From the sequence record OZ035790.1: 64,000 nucleotides of DNA, one strand, 5' to 3'. This document shows, piece by piece, positions 23,006 through 62,688 of the stretch; positions within the stretch are counted from its first letter, which is position 1; each line of letters begins with the position of its first letter. The stretch is from Felixounavirus LF110P4. Under the pieces are notes generated by a model. The model did not search any database, was not told where the DNA came from, and saw only the letters and a program-made list of their open reading frames with translations. The position numbers and the translations under genes are program-made.

Positions 23006-23200
23006 ATGCCTACAATCCTAGCAATTCTTCTAAAAAATCTAGGTAGCTTCTTCTGGAAACTCATTTTATCCCTTCTAAGTGAATACATGATTGAGAAAGT
23101 GTTCTTTAAGCTTGCAAGATACCTTGCGAGTAAAACAGACACACCTATTGATGATGAGTTCGTAGATAACTTAGAAAAAGCTTTTAAGGGGGAGAAATAA
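23006..23200 (+). CDS. small membrane protein (possible holin-like)
   Basis: 64 aa; gaggtga RBS; hydrophobic N-terminal segment ILAILLKNLGSFFWKLILSLL; downstream of tail fibres. Confidence 0.45.
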   Translation: MPTILAILLKNLGSFFWKLILSLLSEYMIEKVFFKLARYLASKTDTPIDDEFVDNLEKAFKGEK

Positions 23201-23566
23201 ATGAAGTGGCTAGAGGAAGCTTTTAAAAATAATATTGGTGCAATTGTAGTTGGTATTTTTAGTGTTATTGGGATGTATACCACCATGCAAGTTTCGGATG
23301 GTAAGCAAGAAGTGTCTGTCACAACAAAGTTACAGCAGCTAGATAATTACAGCAAAGCTAATTACTCAGCTATTCGTGATTTACAGTCTGACATGAGACT
23401 GATTCAGCTAGGGATGGAGAACCAGAAAGTTCAGTTAGAGAATGTTAAGGGTGAAAACGCAAAACTTACCAAAACTCTTGATAAATTCTCTGACAGTGTA
23501 AATAATCTGGCTCAATCAGTATCAGCCCTCCAAGCTATTACTGAGAAGAACACAAAAGAACACTGA
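23201..23566 (+). CDS. membrane-anchored coiled-coil protein (possible lysis-related or fibre assembly)
   Basis: 121 aa; aagggggag RBS; one TM helix (IGAIVVGIFSVIGMY) then coiled-coil-like region. Confidence 0.45.
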   Translation: MKWLEEAFKNNIGAIVVGIFSVIGMYTTMQVSDGKQEVSVTTKLQQLDNYSKANYSAIRDLQSDMRLIQLGMENQKVQLENVKGENAKLTKTLDKFSDSVNNLAQSVSALQAITEKNTKEH

Positions 23567-23574
23567 AAATAAAA

Positions 23575-23612
23575 TTTTAAGGCTCCTTTTTACGGGAGCC
23601 TTTTTTGTTTTT
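23575..23612. terminator. bidirectional intrinsic terminator between convergent gene blocks
   Basis: ggctcc-tttttacg-ggagcc hairpin flanked by an A-tract upstream and T-tract downstream. Confidence 0.7.
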
Positions 23613-24510
23613 ACTTACCTACTGACAAAGGTGCTTCAATCTTTCCTGCATGTTTGTAGTTGTTGATGCCACCAATAAAGTCACTTGCAGTAAGATGTTT
23701 AAGGTCACTTAGAGTGTTAAGCTGTACACCAATCTCAAAAGTAGGTGCATGGAACTCTTCATTGTTCATCAGTTCATAAACCTGCTTCATATGGTTCTGA
23801 TAAATTTGAGTATCTCCAAAGACACCTATCAAGTATCGTGGAGTGTATCCAGTCATCTTACAAAGAACTTCTAAGATAAAGCCATAAGACGCAATATTAA
23901 ACGGAAGTCCTAAAAAGGTGTCTACAGAACGCTGATACCATTGTAAGTCAACTTCACCTTCGTTAGTGATATAAATCTGAAACAGTACATGACAAGGTGC
24001 TAAAGCCATCGAGTTAGCTGCAATATCTGCTGCATTCCAAGCATTAACAAGCATGTAGCGGTCTGTAATATCACCCTTCATCTTCGTTACTAAGGTCTCT
24101 AACTGGTCTACAACACAACCATTATGACCTTCAAAGTTTCTCCACTGAACCCCGTAGATTCTCCCACCTGCATCTTCTAACCAGTCTTGTTCAGAAGAAT
24201 AGTTAGAGCTTAACCAGCGTTTAAAATCATCTGACCAGATAGTCCAGCGTTCCCCATCATTTTCACCCCAAGTACGGTAACGGAGTTCGCCAAGTTTATT
24301 CTCACCATTCAGGAACCATAAAGCTTCCCCGATAACTTGCCGTGTAAACACCTGTTTAGATGTTAAGAGTGGGAAACCAGTACGCATATCAAAACGAAAT
24401 TGTGGTGGAGCAAATGCAGAGATAACATCTCCAGTTCGTGTAGTACGCAGTTCACCAACGGATAAAACATGGTTCAGGATATTTTTGTAACTCAAATCAG
24501 CTTGTGACAT
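23611..24510 (-). CDS. thyA: thymidylate synthase
   Basis: ThyA signature including active-site ALAPCH and LQWYQRSVDTFLGLPFNIASYG motifs; 299 aa, colinear. Confidence 0.95.
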   Translation of the reverse strand: MSQADLSYKNILNHVLSVGELRTTRTGDVISAFAPPQFRFDMRTGFPLLTSKQVFTRQVIGEALWFLNGENKLGELRYRTWGENDGERWTIWSDDFKRWLSSNYSSEQDWLEDAGGRIYGVQWRNFEGHNGCVVDQLETLVTKMKGDITDRYMLVNAWNAADIAANSMALAPCHVLFQIYITNEGEVDLQWYQRSVDTFLGLPFNIASYGFILEVLCKMTGYTPRYLIGVFGDTQIYQNHMKQVYELMNNEEFHAPTFEIGVQLNTLSDLKHLTASDFIGGINNYKHAGKIEAPLSVGK

Positions 24511-24511
24511 A

Positions 24512-25057
24512 TCAAAAGTGTCCTTTTACTTGTGGAACATAAATCTCAAAGGTTGCTTTACCATCATCTGAGGGTCTTGACTGCACCTTTGCAAATACAC
24601 GGCTATCATACAGTTTATCGAAGAAGTTTTCAAAAGGTAAATGTACAGTGACCTCTTCAGTAACTTTATGGAAAACAGTATGGAACACTACATCAGCATA
24701 TGGTAAAGCATTGACAAGGACACCTGCACCACCAATTACAAAGACATCTTCATCAATAGAGCTATCAAGATACTTCAAAAATGCTCCAAAGGATTCTTTG
24801 CTGGCCTTAGCATACATTACATCATCTTTGCCAAAATCTATGCCTAAATATGGTACAGAATTTGTTAAGATTAGGTTTGCACGTTCTGGTAATGGTTTGC
24901 TACCCAGAGTCTTAAAAGTCTCATTACCCATCACTACTAAGTTGTTTTTAGTGAGTCTCTTAAACTCTTGCATATCTTGCTTATGTCGAGGCCACGGCAT
25001 ACCAGTTGGAGTACCAAATTCACCGTTTTCACCACTTGCAAATATTAGCTTAATCAT
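24512..25057 (-). CDS. frd: dihydrofolate reductase
   Basis: 181 aa; DHFR-like N-terminus IKLIFA...GMPW and VVMGNETFKTLG motif; adjacent to thyA. Confidence 0.85.
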   Translation of the reverse strand: MIKLIFASGENGEFGTPTGMPWPRHKQDMQEFKRLTKNNLVVMGNETFKTLGSKPLPERANLILTNSVPYLGIDFGKDDVMYAKASKESFGAFLKYLDSSIDEDVFVIGGAGVLVNALPYADVVFHTVFHKVTEEVTVHLPFENFFDKLYDSRVFAKVQSRPSDDGKATFEIYVPQVKGHF

Positions 25058-25314
25058 TTTGTAAACCCTTTCTTAATGAACCAGTTGATGACACTCTTCA
25101 CAACTTTACTACGATGGTAGATAAAATGTGGAGAGGGTTGGTATGAACCATAAGCCCAGAAAGCGATAATTTCATTACACCCTGTGCATCGGGTACTTTC
25201 TTCAGCAATATGACCGTTGACTATTTCACTTACCTCACCTTGTAAGTCTGTACACCCACAATGTGGGCATCGGATAGGTGTTCCATCAGACTCATAGCAG
25301 TGTTCAATTTTCAT
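25054..25314 (-). CDS. small zinc-ribbon protein
   Basis: 86 aa with CPHCGC ... CTGCNE cysteine pairs. Confidence 0.45.
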   Translation of the reverse strand: MKIEHCYESDGTPIRCPHCGCTDLQGEVSEIVNGHIAEESTRCTGCNEIIAFWAYGSYQPSPHFIYHRSKVVKSVINWFIKKGFTK

Positions 25315-25830
25315 TTACTTAACCTCAAAAACTGGCTCAAGAACCAATATAAAGTCTACACAGTCATCTTCTTCATCCAGAATACCATCAAAGTTCTTAG
25401 GAACGAAGTCGAAGAGGCTCATCACAAAGCAGTCAGAAGTGACCTTGATAGTTCCTCCCATGTTCTCTACAGTTAACACTGTACGACTTTCTTTTACCTC
25501 CCTCAGAAGATTACCCACAAAGTCATCTAAGAAGTACTTCATCAGTGACTTAAAACCTTTAGGATAATCTGTACCAGAGTATGTTTCAATCTGAGGCACA
25601 AGCTTAACATTTATACTAGTCTTTGTTAAGAACGTGTTAGAGAACATACTATCAGGTAGTTTGCAAACAATCTTTCCAGTACCTTCATGTTCAATCTCAA
25701 CAAAACCAGCTTCGTCGCCACATGTAACTATTTTAAAAGATGCTTCATTCTCATACTGTGAAGCCATAAACTTTTTAAGCATCTCTTTAAGGAAATCTGC
25801 ATGAGCATCTTGTAAGTAGATATCAATCAT
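25315..25830 (-). CDS. hypothetical protein
   Basis: 171 aa ORF in compact leftward operon. Confidence 0.4.
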   Translation of the reverse strand: MIDIYLQDAHADFLKEMLKKFMASQYENEASFKIVTCGDEAGFVEIEHEGTGKIVCKLPDSMFSNTFLTKTSINVKLVPQIETYSGTDYPKGFKSLMKYFLDDFVGNLLREVKESRTVLTVENMGGTIKVTSDCFVMSLFDFVPKNFDGILDEEDDCVDFILVLEPVFEVK

Positions 25831-25843
25831 AGTTAATCACCTA

Positions 25844-26203
25844 TTATGGGAACAGACACTTAATGTCATCATTTTTGAAAACGAAACTTGTGTAGTTGTG
25901 ACCGTCAACATCCAGCCAAACAGCCTGAACATCTACACCATCAAGATTCTGGTAAAGCTCTTTGATGAAGTGGTCTTTCACAACCTGACTGCTAGTTGTT
26001 TCCAGTTTAATGTTTGAGATTGCTGAGCCTACAGCCATATAGCCCATGACACGTTTCTTCTCAGTGTGCTTAATCTTACCATCTTTGTAAGCCATAATGA
26101 GATTGGAGAGAATCTTCACACCATAATACTTTTCAAGGTGAGTTGGTACGCCATAAAAGCCTAATGCGAAGTTTTCAGAGTGGATAATGTTTTCACGTTT
26201 CAT
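25844..26203 (-). CDS. hypothetical protein
   Basis: 119 aa ORF. Confidence 0.4.
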   Translation of the reverse strand: MKRENIIHSENFALGFYGVPTHLEKYYGVKILSNLIMAYKDGKIKHTEKKRVMGYMAVGSAISNIKLETTSSQVVKDHFIKELYQNLDGVDVQAVWLDVDGHNYTSFVFKNDDIKCLFP

Positions 26204-26204
26204 A

Positions 26205-26504
26205 TTAATCTGCCAACCTTAAATTGAAATTAACACCAAATTTTTCACATACTTCCAACATATACTCAAGGGAGACGTTACCAGTGAGATGGATTATGTT
26301 GGATACACGAGCCTGAGAGATACCACAAATTTTAGCAACTTGCTCTTGAGAAAGACCTCTGGATTTAATCTCTCTCTTAAAACGATGTGCAACGAAGTCT
26401 CTCATTTCGTCTACATCCATTGGACAAATATAACTCTCCATTTCAGCCTCTCTATCAGCCTCCCAATCATCTTGTGGGGCATAAGGGTCAAAAACCTCAT
26501 TCAT
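26205..26504 (-). CDS. XRE-type helix-turn-helix protein
   Basis: HTH-like segment GLSQEQVAKICGISQARVSNIIH; likely ATG at 26504 with ggaag RBS (track ORF extends to 26534). Confidence 0.5.
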   Translation of the reverse strand: MNEVFDPYAPQDDWEADREAEMESYICPMDVDEMRDFVAHRFKREIKSRGLSQEQVAKICGISQARVSNIIHLTGNVSLEYMLEVCEKFGVNFNLRLAD

Positions 26505-26709
26505 CTTTCTTCTTCCGTTTGCGTGAAGTGTCAATTAATGAATCTATGTTTGTAGCCCTAACCTTTTCACGTTCATCGTTAAGATAATCATCAAGAGCCT
26601 TTTCAATCTGTGAATCATCTTGACAGATGACTGTAAAGACTGTAAAGCCGTCTGTATCGTCAATTATCTTACCATAACCGCTTCTGGGATGTAACTTTTT
26701 AAGAGCCAT
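26497..26709 (-). CDS. hypothetical protein
   Basis: 70 aa ORF with basic C-terminus. Confidence 0.35.
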   Translation of the reverse strand: MALKKLHPRSGYGKIIDDTDGFTVFTVICQDDSQIEKALDDYLNDEREKVRATNIDSLIDTSRKRKKKDE

Positions 26710-26710
26710 A

Positions 26711-27094
26711 TCAGATACCTGTGCAGCTTCTGTTTTCTAAGAAATACTCAACACCATACATGGCTTTTTGCATCAAATCTTCTTTAAACTGAATACGATG
26801 ATTGAGCATAGTTTGTACATCAATATCGTCATGGTGTTTCTCTTTAATATTTGCAGATTGTAGGAAATACTCTGCAAGAACACGATACTGATAGTCAGTT
26901 ACCTTATCAGTCATCTCTGTTAAAGACTCTTCAGAGATTGGTTTCAGTAGCTCACCATTAGCTAGAGCAACACCTTTTACAATCTGGCAAGTATCTTCTG
27001 GAACACCTGACAAGTCCACATTTGGGAGTTCTGTTGCATTGACTGGTAAATTCATTGCCATAACCATTGCAGCAGCTAATAAAATCTTTTTCAT
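26711..27094 (-). CDS. secreted (periplasmic) protein of unknown function
   Basis: 127 aa; N-terminal Sec signal peptide MKKILLAAAMVMAMNLPVNA; has its own promoter. Confidence 0.55.
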   Translation of the reverse strand: MKKILLAAAMVMAMNLPVNATELPNVDLSGVPEDTCQIVKGVALANGELLKPISEESLTEMTDKVTDYQYRVLAEYFLQSANIKEKHHDDIDVQTMLNHRIQFKEDLMQKAMYGVEYFLENRSCTGI

Positions 27095-27132
27095 AATGAC
27101 CTCAAAGTTATATTAAATTTTGTATTACATTG

Positions 27133-27167
27133 AGTATAAAAATAAGCTATAACACCTGACTTGTCAA
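27133..27167 (-). promoter_or_regulatory. sigma70-like promoter (TTGACA-17-TATTTT, TATACT further downstream)
   Basis: minus-strand ttgaca at 27167-27162, ~40 nt upstream of the 27094 start codon. Confidence 0.45.
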
Positions 27168-27189
27168 CAGATTTTATAGCTTATTTGGC

Positions 27190-27592
27190 AGATTTTTTAT
27201 AAGGCTACTGCCATCCTTCCATACCCTACCTTACCACACCTAACCATACCTAACCAAACTACACCATACAATACCTTATTAAAAGACCCTCTTAAAGACC
27301 TTTTAAAAAGGTAAGTCTCATTTTAATGTAGCTCCGATTAACTACCCACACCTTACCTCACCTGACCTGACCTGACCCTACCTAGCATTACCGTGCCACA
27401 CCTCACTTAAAAACCCTCTTAGAAGACTCTTAAGTGATGTAATCGGATTTTAATGTAGCTCCGATTAACTACCCGCACTTTACCAAACCTCACCCTACCC
27501 TACCAGACCTTACCTAACCGCGCCGTACCTCATTAAAAGACCCTCTTAAAGACCTTTTAAAAAGGAGCCTCCGAAGAGGCTACCTAGTCAAC
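27190..27592. repeat. composite non-coding repeat region A (NNACC pentamer tracts, conserved hairpins, 33-nt and 37-nt direct repeats)
   Basis: no ORF; exact 33-nt repeat at 27279-27311 and 27533-27565; 37-nt block 27403-27439 recurs at 28969-29005; pentamer tracts 27211-27276, 27344-27402, 27471-27531. Confidence 0.8.
27560..27587 (-). terminator. intrinsic terminator after the 27593 gene
   Basis: minus-strand agcctc-ttcg-gaggct hairpin followed by TTTTT. Confidence 0.6.
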
Positions 27593-28033
27593 TTAGAAAG
27601 GTTTTCTACGTTGCTTGTTAATGTTAGCTTTCATAGCAGCTAAATGGTTTTGCTGTTCAATTAGTCGTGAACGTTCTTGATGGCTAAGTACCATAGTGTT
27701 CACATTCTCAATCGCTTGAGTGGCTTGCTTTAAAGCACGACCAATCTTACCAGACATTTTACGTTTTGCAATAGTTGCTTGATGCTTAGGTTCAACCACA
27801 CGATAACCAACACCCATTGAAGCAACCAGATAAATCTTCTCTTCTTTAAGAAGCTTCTCAATAAACTTCTCAAGTCGATTTAAGCGTGTAAGCGCATAAG
27901 CCTTCATTTCATCTTCGTACTTAACAATGTCACCTTGATAAGTTGGCTTCACAATACCTAAGAAGGTGTCCATCTCAGAATGTGATACAGTGTCACCGTA
28001 ACTAAACTTTGCTGCTAATGCTTTTGTATTCAT
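27593..28033 (-). CDS. hypothetical protein (repeat-flanked cassette gene 2)
   Basis: 146 aa, basic C-terminus; start is 2 nt from upstream stop. Confidence 0.5.
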   Translation of the reverse strand: MNTKALAAKFSYGDTVSHSEMDTFLGIVKPTYQGDIVKYEDEMKAYALTRLNRLEKFIEKLLKEEKIYLVASMGVGYRVVEPKHQATIAKRKMSGKIGRALKQATQAIENVNTMVLSHQERSRLIEQQNHLAAMKANINKQRRKPF

Positions 28034-28035
28034 AA

Positions 28036-28641
<606 letters not shown>

Positions 28642-28654
28642 TTAGTTGATTGTT

Positions 28655-29005
28655 AAGTTGTTTGTAAAGAACCCTCAATAGAAGACTCTTTAGAAACTTG
28701 GTAGATTTTTAACGTGGCTACTACCATCCACCCACACTTTGCCATACCTCACCGCGCCTTACCCGACCTGGCTGCACCTTGCCTTGCCAAACATCACTTA
28801 AAAACCCTATGAGATACCCTATCGAGTATAATTTAAAGGCTCTTAAGTGATGTAAGTCTCATTTTAATGTAGCTGAGACTAACTACCCATACCCTACTTT
28901 ACCTTGCCGTACCGTACTTTACCCGACCACACCGGACAATACTTAACCCTACCTCACCCGACCGGACATCACTTAAAAACCCTCTTAGAAGACTCTTAAG
29001 TGATG
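28655..29005. repeat. composite non-coding repeat region B (NNACC pentamer tracts plus hairpins with 10-bp arms)
   Basis: hairpins with catcacttaa / ttaagtgatg arms at 28792-28852 and 28967-29005; stem-loop 28855-28880; pentamer tracts 28724-28790 and 28884-28966. Confidence 0.8.
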
Positions 29006-29035
29006 CTGGTGAGTACCCGTTGGTCTATGCTGTTC

Positions 29036-29063
29036 AGTATACTCACCAAATTTTCTATGTCAA
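29036..29063 (-). promoter_or_regulatory. sigma70-like promoter (TTGACA-16-TATACT) driving the repeat-containing leader and cassette
   Basis: minus-strand ttgaca (29063-29058) and tatact (29041-29036), immediately downstream of the ligase stop. Confidence 0.45.
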
Positions 29064-29069
29064 CAACTT

Positions 29070-30173
29070 TTATTCATAATCTCGTATAATGAGACCAACA
29101 GGGAACTGTAAAGAACCCTTACGAGTCATCTTCTGGAACTGAACCGTTAAAGGTTTCCCGATAAACTCTTCAGGATGCTCAGCAAGATACTGTTTCTTCT
29201 CATGAGTAGTCTTCCATGAGACATCTACAAAGACGTTAGGAAGAGTCTCTACAACGAACTTACCATGACCACGTTTATCAGTCTTTACACCAGTAACTTT
29301 AAACTCTTCAGTGTGCATCTTCTTGTGCTTAATCAAGAAGTATGAACGGTGGCCACACTCATAGAAAGATTCTTCAGAGATTGAACGGTACATTGCACCT
29401 TCAAACTTAGCTTCAACCCACTTATCATGAGCTTCATCAAATTCTTCCCAAGAATTTACACGACGAGACTTAACAGGAATAACTTTACAGCCATCTCTGA
29501 AGTCATTCAATGGTGAAGTCTCAATAATATCTCTACGCTCAGGCCACGTCTTAGTGCTGTCACAGATATCGTACCAGTAAAACTTGAGTAAATGTCGGTC
29601 AGGATTGTCTTCATTTTTAATCATGGAGACAATATCTTCTAAGTCCAACCCGTGAGCATAGATTTCACCATCAAATTCATCAACGTCTTTATGGAGCCTC
29701 AACATTGCCATAATGTCAGGTATTAGCTCAGTAGGAATTTTATAAATAGTGTTCTCACGAGAATATGCTGTAAATACGCTGCCAATACTTAAGTGTCTTG
29801 AAATTCTACAACGGACACCATCAAGTTTTGGTTGAGCATCAGCAGGGAACTTCAGATACTTTGCATGGCTAACCTTTGCAGCATCATGAGCAAGCTGTAC
29901 ACCTACCTTCTCAGTATTCTGTGCAGACTCTTTTGTGTAAGAATAACCTTTGCGGTCAACTTGCTTTTTATACTTAGCAGCAACTTCAAAGAGGGCTTGC
30001 TGTTCAGTGTTACGCTCATTCTTTTTACCGATGTTTTTAGGTTCTGCTGTATACTCTTCAAACATCATCTTGCCATTTTCTTTACCGTAGGTTGTAATAA
30101 CTTTGTCACCTACAGCAACGCATGACCAGACGTTGAAGGAACCGTCTTTATTTTGTTTGTACAGAATTGTCAT
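29070..30173 (-). CDS. ATP-dependent DNA ligase
   Basis: adenylation motif KLDGVR; ATG at 30173 with gaggt RBS (track ORF extends to 30209). Confidence 0.85.
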   Translation of the reverse strand: MTILYKQNKDGSFNVWSCVAVGDKVITTYGKENGKMMFEEYTAEPKNIGKKNERNTEQQALFEVAAKYKKQVDRKGYSYTKESAQNTEKVGVQLAHDAAKVSHAKYLKFPADAQPKLDGVRCRISRHLSIGSVFTAYSRENTIYKIPTELIPDIMAMLRLHKDVDEFDGEIYAHGLDLEDIVSMIKNEDNPDRHLLKFYWYDICDSTKTWPERRDIIETSPLNDFRDGCKVIPVKSRRVNSWEEFDEAHDKWVEAKFEGAMYRSISEESFYECGHRSYFLIKHKKMHTEEFKVTGVKTDKRGHGKFVVETLPNVFVDVSWKTTHEKKQYLAEHPEEFIGKPLTVQFQKMTRKGSLQFPVGLIIRDYE

Positions 30174-30579: not shown

Positions 30580-30837
30580 TCACTCAATAACAGTAGTGTG
30601 TGATTGACCATTTTTGCCATAGCTATAAGATGTTGTTGTTTGAGAGTTTGGACACCTGACAACAACAATGTCTCTGCTTATGGCATCACCATGTAACTTA
30701 TAGACTCTGCAATCTTGCATCTCTGGTGGGAGGCTATAAGAAGCGTTTTTGTCCTCGTAAGAGGGATTACAGCCAGATAGAAAAATTACTCCAAGTGCAA
30801 CCATTGCTTTCACACAACTCTCAACCTTATTGTTCAC
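30580..30837 (-). CDS. small lipoprotein
   Basis: 85 aa; signal peptide with lipobox LSGC; GTG start preceded by gagagg RBS. Confidence 0.5.
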   Translation of the reverse strand: MNNKVESCVKAMVALGVIFLSGCNPSYEDKNASYSLPPEMQDCRVYKLHGDAISRDIVVVRCPNSQTTTSYSYGKNGQSHTTVIE

Positions 30838-62139: not shown

Positions 62140-62688
62140 ATGAAGAAATTGATTCTAGGTTTGTGCTTAATGTTTACAGCACACTTATCTTATGCAGTTG
62201 ACTGCCCAGAGCTATCAATTAGCCAAAAAGTAAACATGTTAAAAGCTTACCAGTATGGTGAGAATAACATGGGTAAAGGTTGGGGTATCACTCTAGCTGC
62301 TATAGCCTTACAAGAGTCAGAGTTAGGTCTGAAGGTAGAGAATAAAAAGACACATGATTATGGTATTTTCCAGAATCACTTGAAGACTGTTGTAAAGCGT
62401 AACAAAATTAGTCCTAATGTGGCTAAAAAGAAACTCTTAAAAGACTTTGACTATGCTGCAAAGGAAACGCACAAAGAACTTGAATTTTGGACAAAGGTGC
62501 ATGGTCAGCCAAAGTCAAAGAAGACTTTACAAAAAGTTTTAGCATCATATAATGCTGGGTATTCGTACAGAATCCCTAAAGCTAAGAAATATTCTCAAGA
62601 TGTCTATAACAACATGAAAGTCATCGCTCAATGTGAATTTGCAACAAACATTTCTAAGGTAAACCATGAAAAAATTAAGAAAGTCTGA
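62140..62688 (+). CDS. secreted lytic transglycosylase (SLT domain)
   Basis: signal peptide MKKLILGLCLMFTAHLSYA; SLT family-1 motifs: catalytic ES (IALQESELG), GIFQ (GLMQ-like), SYNAG (AYNAG-like). Confidence 0.65.
   Translation: MKKLILGLCLMFTAHLSYAVDCPELSISQKVNMLKAYQYGENNMGKGWGITLAAIALQESELGLKVENKKTHDYGIFQNHLKTVVKRNKISPNVAKKKLLKDFDYAAKETHKELEFWTKVHGQPKSKKTLQKVLASYNAGYSYRIPKAKKYSQDVYNNMKVIAQCEFATNISKVNHEKIKKV

Follow-up and report, generated by a model that had tools for sequence, protein, structure and literature searches.

A predicted exported accessory protein encoded at the head of the DHFR/ThyA operon of Felix O1-like phages

The Spackle protein of phage T4 (gp61.3) has a signal peptide and a 75-residue helical bundle with one disulfide, and it excludes superinfecting phages by binding gp5, the tail lysozyme, at a basic patch (PMC7677548). 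Llp of phage T5 and Cor of the lambdoid phages are also exported accessory proteins that protect the infected cell, in their case as receptor-blocking lipoproteins with a lipobox and a cysteine at position +1. The T4 protein RI, which is small, helical, periplasmic and non-essential, is anchored by an uncleaved and releasable signal-anchor-release (SAR) domain.

Here, we analyzed a protein that can be compared with each of these systems. It is encoded in a window of 64,000 nucleotides (sequence record OZ035790.1) of the genome of Felixounavirus LF110P4, a Felix O1-like myophage, where the initial annotation had described it as a periplasmic protein of 127 residues. Like Spackle, it comes from a virulent myophage, is encoded in a pre-late transcription unit, has a predicted cleavable signal starting with MKK and a small mature domain, predicted to be all-helical, with exactly two cysteines (disulfide-bonded in Spackle), and is dispensable in single infections. 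Homology to Spackle was rejected, as hhalign aligns only the signal peptide, with a probability of 13%, and the Spackle fold is not among the structural matches of the protein. The likeness to RI lies in a small, helical and non-essential protein, here predicted to be periplasmic, from a phage to which a class III holin is ascribed, whereas the predicted signal is cleavable in place of the SAR domain and there is no homology. With Llp and Cor it would share the protection of the infected cell, which is the role proposed below, but it lacks a lipobox, and its predicted cleavage site is one for signal peptidase I (SPase I). The outcome of our analysis is an improved annotation, and not a new mechanism: at this level, what is new is the inference of an exported periplasmic accessory protein, encoded by the first gene of the DHFR/ThyA operon, that forms a three-helix bundle with a probable disulfide.

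Family, operon and expression of the gene

The reading frame claimed in the initial annotation is a real gene of the minus strand, preceded by a GAGG motif (Table 1). Across 23 distinct Felixounavirus alleles its dN/dS is 0.067 overall (dS 0.205, dN 0.014), and 0.044 in the mature part (residues 21-127). Since these values are low and syntenic orthologs with 30-35% identity are found in other lineages, the frame is coding beyond chance. These orthologs occur in the same slot in Mooglevirus (Michonne, ESh22, Sf13), in Suspvirus (SUSP1/2, EP1) and in an uncultured lineage represented by L007, a 73.9-kb metagenomic contig. The shared slot starts with the ligase gene, continues with the secreted-protein gene, a gene for a protein of about 65 residues and that of a Cro/C1 HTH regulator, and ends, after other genes, with those of dihydrofolate reductase (DHFR) and thymidylate synthase (ThyA). 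The 4.5-kb stretch around the gene matches 259 phage records, the best of them with 92-96% identity. An ortholog is present in 258 phage genomes (tblastn) and is labelled hypothetical in every one; the protein of Felixounavirus LF82P5 is 100% identical.

Table 1. Positions of the gene, its parts and the neighbouring features in the window.
Feature	Position	Strand	Remarks
Secreted-protein ORF	26711..27094	minus	127 aa, begins MKKILLAAAMVMAMNLPVNA/TELPN (cleavage at slash)
Shine-Dalgarno GAGG	27100..27103	minus	5 nt before ATG; annotated as RBS in phages Mushroom and Michonne
Predicted Sec/SPase I signal peptide MKKILLAAAMVMAMNLPVNA	27035..27094, codons 1-20	minus	MKK n-region, 13-residue h-region, V-N-A c-region
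Mature domain (predicted)	26714..27034, codons 21-127	minus	107 aa, pI 4.6, net charge about -9
Stop codon TGA of secreted-protein gene	26711..26713	minus	1 nt before ATG of 70-aa gene
Rest of operon	23611..26709	minus	70-aa protein, Cro/C1-type HTH regulator, 119-aa, 171-aa and 86-aa unknowns, dihydrofolate reductase, thymidylate synthase
Bidirectional intrinsic terminator	23579..23602	both	after thyA; annotated in ASO1B, listed as t79/t80 in Felix O1
64-aa membrane protein (phrog_402), then 121-aa protein (phrog_4038)	23006-23566	plus	
-35 hexamer TTGACA	27162..27167	minus	perfect; operon promoter
-10 hexamer TATTTT	27139..27144	minus	17-nt spacer; most likely -10
19-nt inverted repeat around the -35, then U-run	27140..27186 (arms 27140-27158, 27168-27186)	minus	arms 89% complementary
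Terminator-like hairpin	27566..27581	minus	closes upstream unit (200-aa + 146-aa genes), before repeats

The protein belongs to phrog_4332 itself, a family without assigned function from which it differs in nothing and which it matches over its full length (E-value 6e-67, residues 1-127 against positions 1-126 of the 126 of the profile). Its orthologs ORF87 of Felix O1 (Felix01p159) and gp037 of SUSP1 (AVU07_agp037) are members of the same family, and the gene is at the orthologous position in all the genomes of Felixounavirus, Mooglevirus and Suspvirus that we examined. The family is thus already known as one of hypothetical proteins, and its recognisable relatives are confined to this phage subfamily. 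When 1.84 billion cluster representatives were searched exhaustively with phmmer, 5 related clusters were recovered, all of the Ounavirinae type, with no relatives outside the phage group, and a profile search of 5.8 billion proteins gave 32 clusters, all of the same kind. One additional phmmer match, in a repetitive protein of 1571 residues, was spurious. Searches of Pfam, NCBIfam, PADLOC and the PDB sequences with the secreted protein returned no meaningful match; a match to the fimbrial StaA in NCBIfam was discarded, having a score of 18 bits for a cutoff of 230 and starting at the N-terminal signal peptide.

The initial annotation had given the gene a dedicated promoter. This is not the case, since the stop codon of the gene and the ATG of the 70-residue protein are 1 nt apart, the next genes overlap, and there is no terminator-like site on the minus strand before 23602..23579, all of which makes this promoter the head of an operon of 8 genes. 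The secreted-protein gene is therefore the first, promoter-proximal gene of the DHFR/ThyA operon, and its spacing from the next gene is indicative of translational coupling between the two. The gene order of the operon is the same in L007, Michonne and SUSP1. Between genera the secreted-protein gene diverges fastest in the operon, with 30-34% identity versus 52-88% for most of its neighbours, and the 171-residue unknown comes next (34-41%). The genes of the 64-residue and 121-residue proteins are convergent with the operon at a shared terminator, and these two proteins are 81-82% identical to those of L007, far above the secreted protein (30%).

Published data on orthologs document the expression of the gene and the effect of its knockdown. 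By RT-PCR, ORF87 of Felix O1 reaches its transcript maximum 25 min after infection and falls in the 'middle' class, as do ORFs 80, 83, 84 and 88 (PMC3185647 Table 3). As these are the sole published expression data, the assignment to an early region made in the initial annotation is contradicted. In contrast, a structural role in the virion, which would have spoken against the initial annotation, is disfavoured by the absence of ORF87 from the shotgun proteome of the Felix O1 virion (PMC3185647). In SUSP1, gp037 was classified as 'Not Fit' by CRISPRi-ART, a transcriptome-wide knockdown with dCas13d (fitness -0.76, P 0.87; PMC11879866 supplement), as were all the downstream genes of the operon (PMC11879866). 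This class is as expected of a gene involved in exclusion or competition. From the RT-PCR, proteome and knockdown data on orthologs, the gene is therefore expressed, non-structural and dispensable in pure culture, and its product is in all likelihood a non-structural accessory protein.

Signal peptide and mature domain

The N-terminus of the protein is that of a textbook Sec/SPase I signal and reads MKK, followed by the h-region ILLAAAMVMAMNL and by PVNA/TE. The MKK of the n-region is invariant in the 32 sequences of the family alignment. The h-region has 13 residues, is rich in Ala and Met, and is followed in all lineages by a helix-breaking Pro or by Gly/Ser. Its maximum Kyte-Doolittle score over 10 residues is 2.7, the same in all lineages, and it is not detected by a scan for transmembrane segments (19 residues, Kyte-Doolittle 1.6) that did detect the true membrane proteins of the window, so that it is both too short and too weakly hydrophobic to be a transmembrane anchor. 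A small-x-Ala motif (V-x-A or A-x-A) occupies one alignment column in five lineages, namely Felixounavirus, Mooglevirus, Suspvirus, the Sf13 type and the metagenomic L007. The signal peptides of the other lineages (MKKLLVGIVALGMSFSAAA/M, MKKLMVGVILATLSFGASA/M, MKKIVLCLFAALSFNAYA/D and MKKLLVAALIFASFGASA/N) are unrelated in sequence, and all five lineages keep two lysines and a hydrophobic core of 13-15 residues. The signal peptide has neither a lipobox (no L-x-x-C at the cleavage site) nor a twin-arginine motif (no RR).

Because the n/h/c architecture and the cleavage motif have been kept across the five lineages despite an unconserved signal sequence, the Sec signal peptide and the periplasmic location claimed in the initial annotation are well supported, and the two invariant cysteines of the mature domain add to this support. 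Export to the periplasm is thus predicted with high confidence, and cleavage by SPase I would take place after Ala20. A natural chimera is encoded by the Shigella phage vB_SflM_004 (protein P0013), in which a signal peptide of the Felixounavirus type precedes a mature domain of the Mooglevirus type, with the recombination point at the cleavage site. The signal peptide and the mature domain are hence modular.

Other genes of the window also encode proteins with export signals. A stand-alone gene upstream of the ligase gene (30580-30837, minus strand) encodes an 85-residue protein of phrog_902 with a lipoprotein signal (lipobox VIFLSG/C), which could be an exclusion lipoprotein like Llp or Cor, or an o-spanin. 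A second protein with a Sec signal (62140-62688, plus strand; 182 residues, MKKLILGLCLMFTAHLSYA/VD, phrog_600) has a weak match, below threshold, to the SLT lytic transglycosylase of Pfam (E-value 9e-4).

The mature domain has an acidic pI (4.5-5.2) and a negative net charge (-3 to -10) in every lineage. From the 32-sequence alignment, AlphaFold2 predicts a three-helix bundle (H1 at residues 31-45, H2 at 55-86, H3 at 93-121) with a mean pLDDT of 86, and of about 95 over the mature part; the values are of 90-99 in most 10-residue blocks of the mature part, in the low 80s around residues 81-100, and below 50 in the signal peptide. The mature cysteines are exactly two, Cys36 (26987-26989) and Cys124 (26723-26725), and they account for two of the mere 22 invariant columns of the alignment. 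Such an invariant pair in an exported domain is the usual signature of a periplasmic disulfide, and we regard a Cys36-Cys124 bond as probable from this pattern of conservation. Conservation peaks in the loop between H1 and H2 (residues 46-54, with G47-E-L-x-K-P52-x-S54) and in the C-terminal tail (residues 122-127, with R122-x-C124-x-G126). One face of H2 carries D63, D67 and Y70, and the most variable segment is the first half of H3. The structure prediction and Foldseek search suggested in the initial annotation thus gave a confident fold on the one hand, and no significant relative in PDB or BFVD on the other: the best E-value in PDB is 1.1, and the sole match in BFVD is the family member of Sf13. 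The protein has no catalytic signature and no homology or fold match pointing to a specific activity, be it the envelope modification or the enzyme inhibition evoked in the initial annotation.

Candidate functions

A small and acidic helical bundle, exported and disulfide-bearing by prediction, with a patch of conserved residues at one of its ends and devoid of catalytic motifs, points to a periplasmic binding or blocking protein. The account that we propose, and on which, taken as a whole, we are evenly divided, is the following. The host sigma70 RNA polymerase would transcribe the operon before the late phase, and the other products of the operon would include the Cro-like regulator and the enzymes of dTMP synthesis. 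The small accessory protein would be exported by the Sec pathway and cut by signal peptidase I after Ala20, which would free into the periplasm an acidic three-helix bundle of 107 residues, probably stapled by the Cys36-Cys124 disulfide. There, it would bind or block a target in the periplasm or envelope in a stoichiometric manner. Contact would likely be made through the conserved end of the bundle, where the GELxKP loop, the residues D63/D67/Y70 and the tail with R122-C124-G126 are found. The protection of the infected cell, either by superinfection exclusion or by a block of the penetration machinery of the incoming phage, would be the most likely role; we rank it first, albeit tentatively and at less than even odds. 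It follows the strategy of Spackle, to which the protein is unrelated.

Along these lines, phrog_4332 might be a new and structurally unrelated family of periplasmic proteins for superinfection exclusion or penetration blocking, specific to the Felix O1-like myophages, although we only advance this as a possibility. The end of the bundle with GELxKP and R-x-C-x-G would then act on a lineage-specific partner, for which the candidates are the machinery with which incoming phages act (their tail tip or that of DNA entry), or an exported muralytic protein of the phage itself. The fast divergence of the gene between genera, together with its strong constraint within the genus, is more easily reconciled with a lineage-specific partner than with a conserved host enzyme. 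If this is true, the family would be a second, independent invention of the strategy of Spackle. A target of the Spackle type is not evident, because Pfam, at its sensitivity, detects neither a lysozyme nor a peptidoglycan-hydrolase domain in ten proteins of the tail (other than the tail fibre), baseplate and spike, among them the tape measure, Dit-like, hub, spike, baseplate J and gp10-like proteins.

In the literature on Felix O1-like phages, we found no superinfection exclusion, lysis inhibition or functional study of the gene. These phages are widely used in Salmonella typing, biocontrol and therapy. A conserved, strongly constrained, dispensable and exported protein is a good candidate for a factor of phage-phage competition or of lysis control. 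In the former case, it would bear on the design of phage cocktails, where mutual exclusion between related phages matters.

The protein could also inhibit or modulate a periplasmic enzyme, which is the kind of function suggested in the initial annotation and which we rank second, as rather unlikely. The enzyme would be a peptidoglycan hydrolase, protease or nuclease of the host, or the exported SLT-like protein of the phage itself, to which the secreted protein would be an immunity-type partner. The acidic helical bundle with its conserved surface patch and its lack of catalytic motifs would suit an inhibitor, and the SLT-like protein with a Sec signal (62140..62688) is encoded in the same genome, but the SLT match of the latter is below the threshold of Pfam and the secreted protein matches neither the fold nor the sequence of Ivy, PliC/MliC, T6SS immunity proteins or other families of inhibitors. 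Furthermore, the strong divergence of the gene between genera that infect the same hosts is contrary to what a conserved host target would predict.

A role as antiholin comes third and is less likely still. In analogy with RI of T4, the secreted protein would delay lysis by binding to a holin of class III, which has one transmembrane domain (TMD) and an N-in/C-out topology, at the periplasmic domain of the latter. A class III holin has been stated in print for phage Mushroom, and a candidate in the window is the 121-residue protein encoded past the terminator of the operon (23201..23566), with a single N-terminal TMD and a coiled coil in its C-terminal part. The records of phages dune and SUSP1 call this protein a holin; yet the Mushroom record labels its homolog of this protein as hypothetical. 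As in the case of rI, the gene is dispensable and expressed before the late phase. Against this stand the lack of similarity to T4 RI (hhalign probability 0.25%), the lack of a homolog of T4 T in the window, the conserved cleavage motif in place of the uncleaved SAR anchor of RI, and the lack of documented lysis inhibition in Felix O1-like phages. In addition, the candidate holin and the secreted protein do not co-vary, since their identities between the window and L007 are 82% and 30%, respectively.

It is improbable that the protein is not released, be it because its N-terminus is an uncleaved membrane anchor or because it is cytoplasmic, with another role for its cysteines. The localisation is predicted from sequence, which leaves some room for this view, and the low confidence of AlphaFold2 at the N-terminus is neutral either way. 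However, the hydrophobic run is short (13 residues) and rich in Ala and Met, it fails the transmembrane scan, the Pro or Gly/Ser and then the small-x-Ala follow it at the same column in all lineages, and two cysteines are too few for a metal site. Finally, a component of the virion or of its assembly, for which we found no supporting point, can be dismissed almost entirely given the absence of ORF87 from the Felix O1 virion, the location of the gene in a nucleotide-metabolism operon outside the structural module, and the lack of fitness effect of the knockdown in SUSP1.

Promoter, hairpins and repeats upstream of the gene

The initial annotation had placed a sigma70-like promoter at 27167-27133. 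Its perfect -35 hexamer was retained, but the TATACT at its other end (27138..27133) would need a spacer of 23 nt, which is outside the range of sigma70. A consensus scan identified instead TTGACA-17-TATTTT (27167..27139), with 10 matches over 12 positions, and the record of phage ASO1B also has a promoter annotated over these 29 nt. Since promoter-like sites are no more numerous in the region than in shuffled sequence, the support for this promoter comes from its intergenic position and its conservation. More precisely, it is essentially invariant in all Felixounavirus loci, and is also present in SUSP1/2, Moogle, another locus of the Moogle type (L038) and L007. In Michonne, ESh22, EP1 and Sf13, a second type of promoter (TTGACA-16-TATACT) replaces it upstream of the secreted-protein gene.

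The second type (GTTGTTGACA-16-TATACT) also occurs in the window, after the ligase gene (29036-29063, minus strand). In this type, of which L003 (2364-2425) and the upstream regions of L005, L006 and L037 are instances, an inverted repeat encloses the -10 along with a conserved core, ATATA..AAAAT..TATAGGAAC. The arms of this repeat are wholly different between phages and yet still complementary (fold z-score of -6.9 in Michonne). The type of promoter has thus been shuffled independently of the genes.

The sequence around the translation start is also peculiar. In the 60 nt of the codons of the signal peptide (1-20, 27035-27094), dS is 0.02 versus 0.245 in the rest of the gene, i.e., ten times lower, and amino-acid changes are tolerated in these codons despite the low dS. 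The segment at 27095-27170, which comprises the 5' UTR and the promoter, is nearly invariant among Felixounaviruses. Together, and within the bounds of such a small sample, these observations point to a constraint at the nucleotide level around the translation start.

The inverted repeat at 27140-27186 forms a hairpin that has the -35 hexamer in its 9-nt loop (RNA fold of -17.8 kcal/mol, z-score of -4.1). The equivalent hairpin of L007 (5917-5950) differs in sequence and includes 4 G.U pairs, possible on the sense strand only (z-score of -3.5). This suggests a terminator for the transcripts leaving the repeat region, overlapping the next promoter. We also considered that the palindrome could be the operator of the HTH regulator of the operon. 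This is unlikely, because the palindromes of the two promoter types differ entirely, those of the second having variable arms, while the recognition helices of the regulators are nearly identical.

The initial annotation located the gene next to a repeat region, and three tandem repeats of 127 nt are indeed found at 27193..27560, upstream of the -35 and separated from it by about 25 nt. The unit of about 127 nt is present in five copies, the other two being at 28680-29000, upstream of the pair of genes for the 200-residue and 146-residue proteins. Each unit contains runs of GGTNN pentamers (on the sense strand) as well as the palindrome TCTTAGAAGACTCTTAAGTGA and the sequence GGGTAGTTAATCGGAGCTACATTAAAAT, which is conserved. 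No Rfam family matched in a scan of 26500-29300. Felix O1 lacks the pair of genes for the 200-residue and 146-residue proteins, so that in this phage the ligase gene is directly upstream of ORF87.
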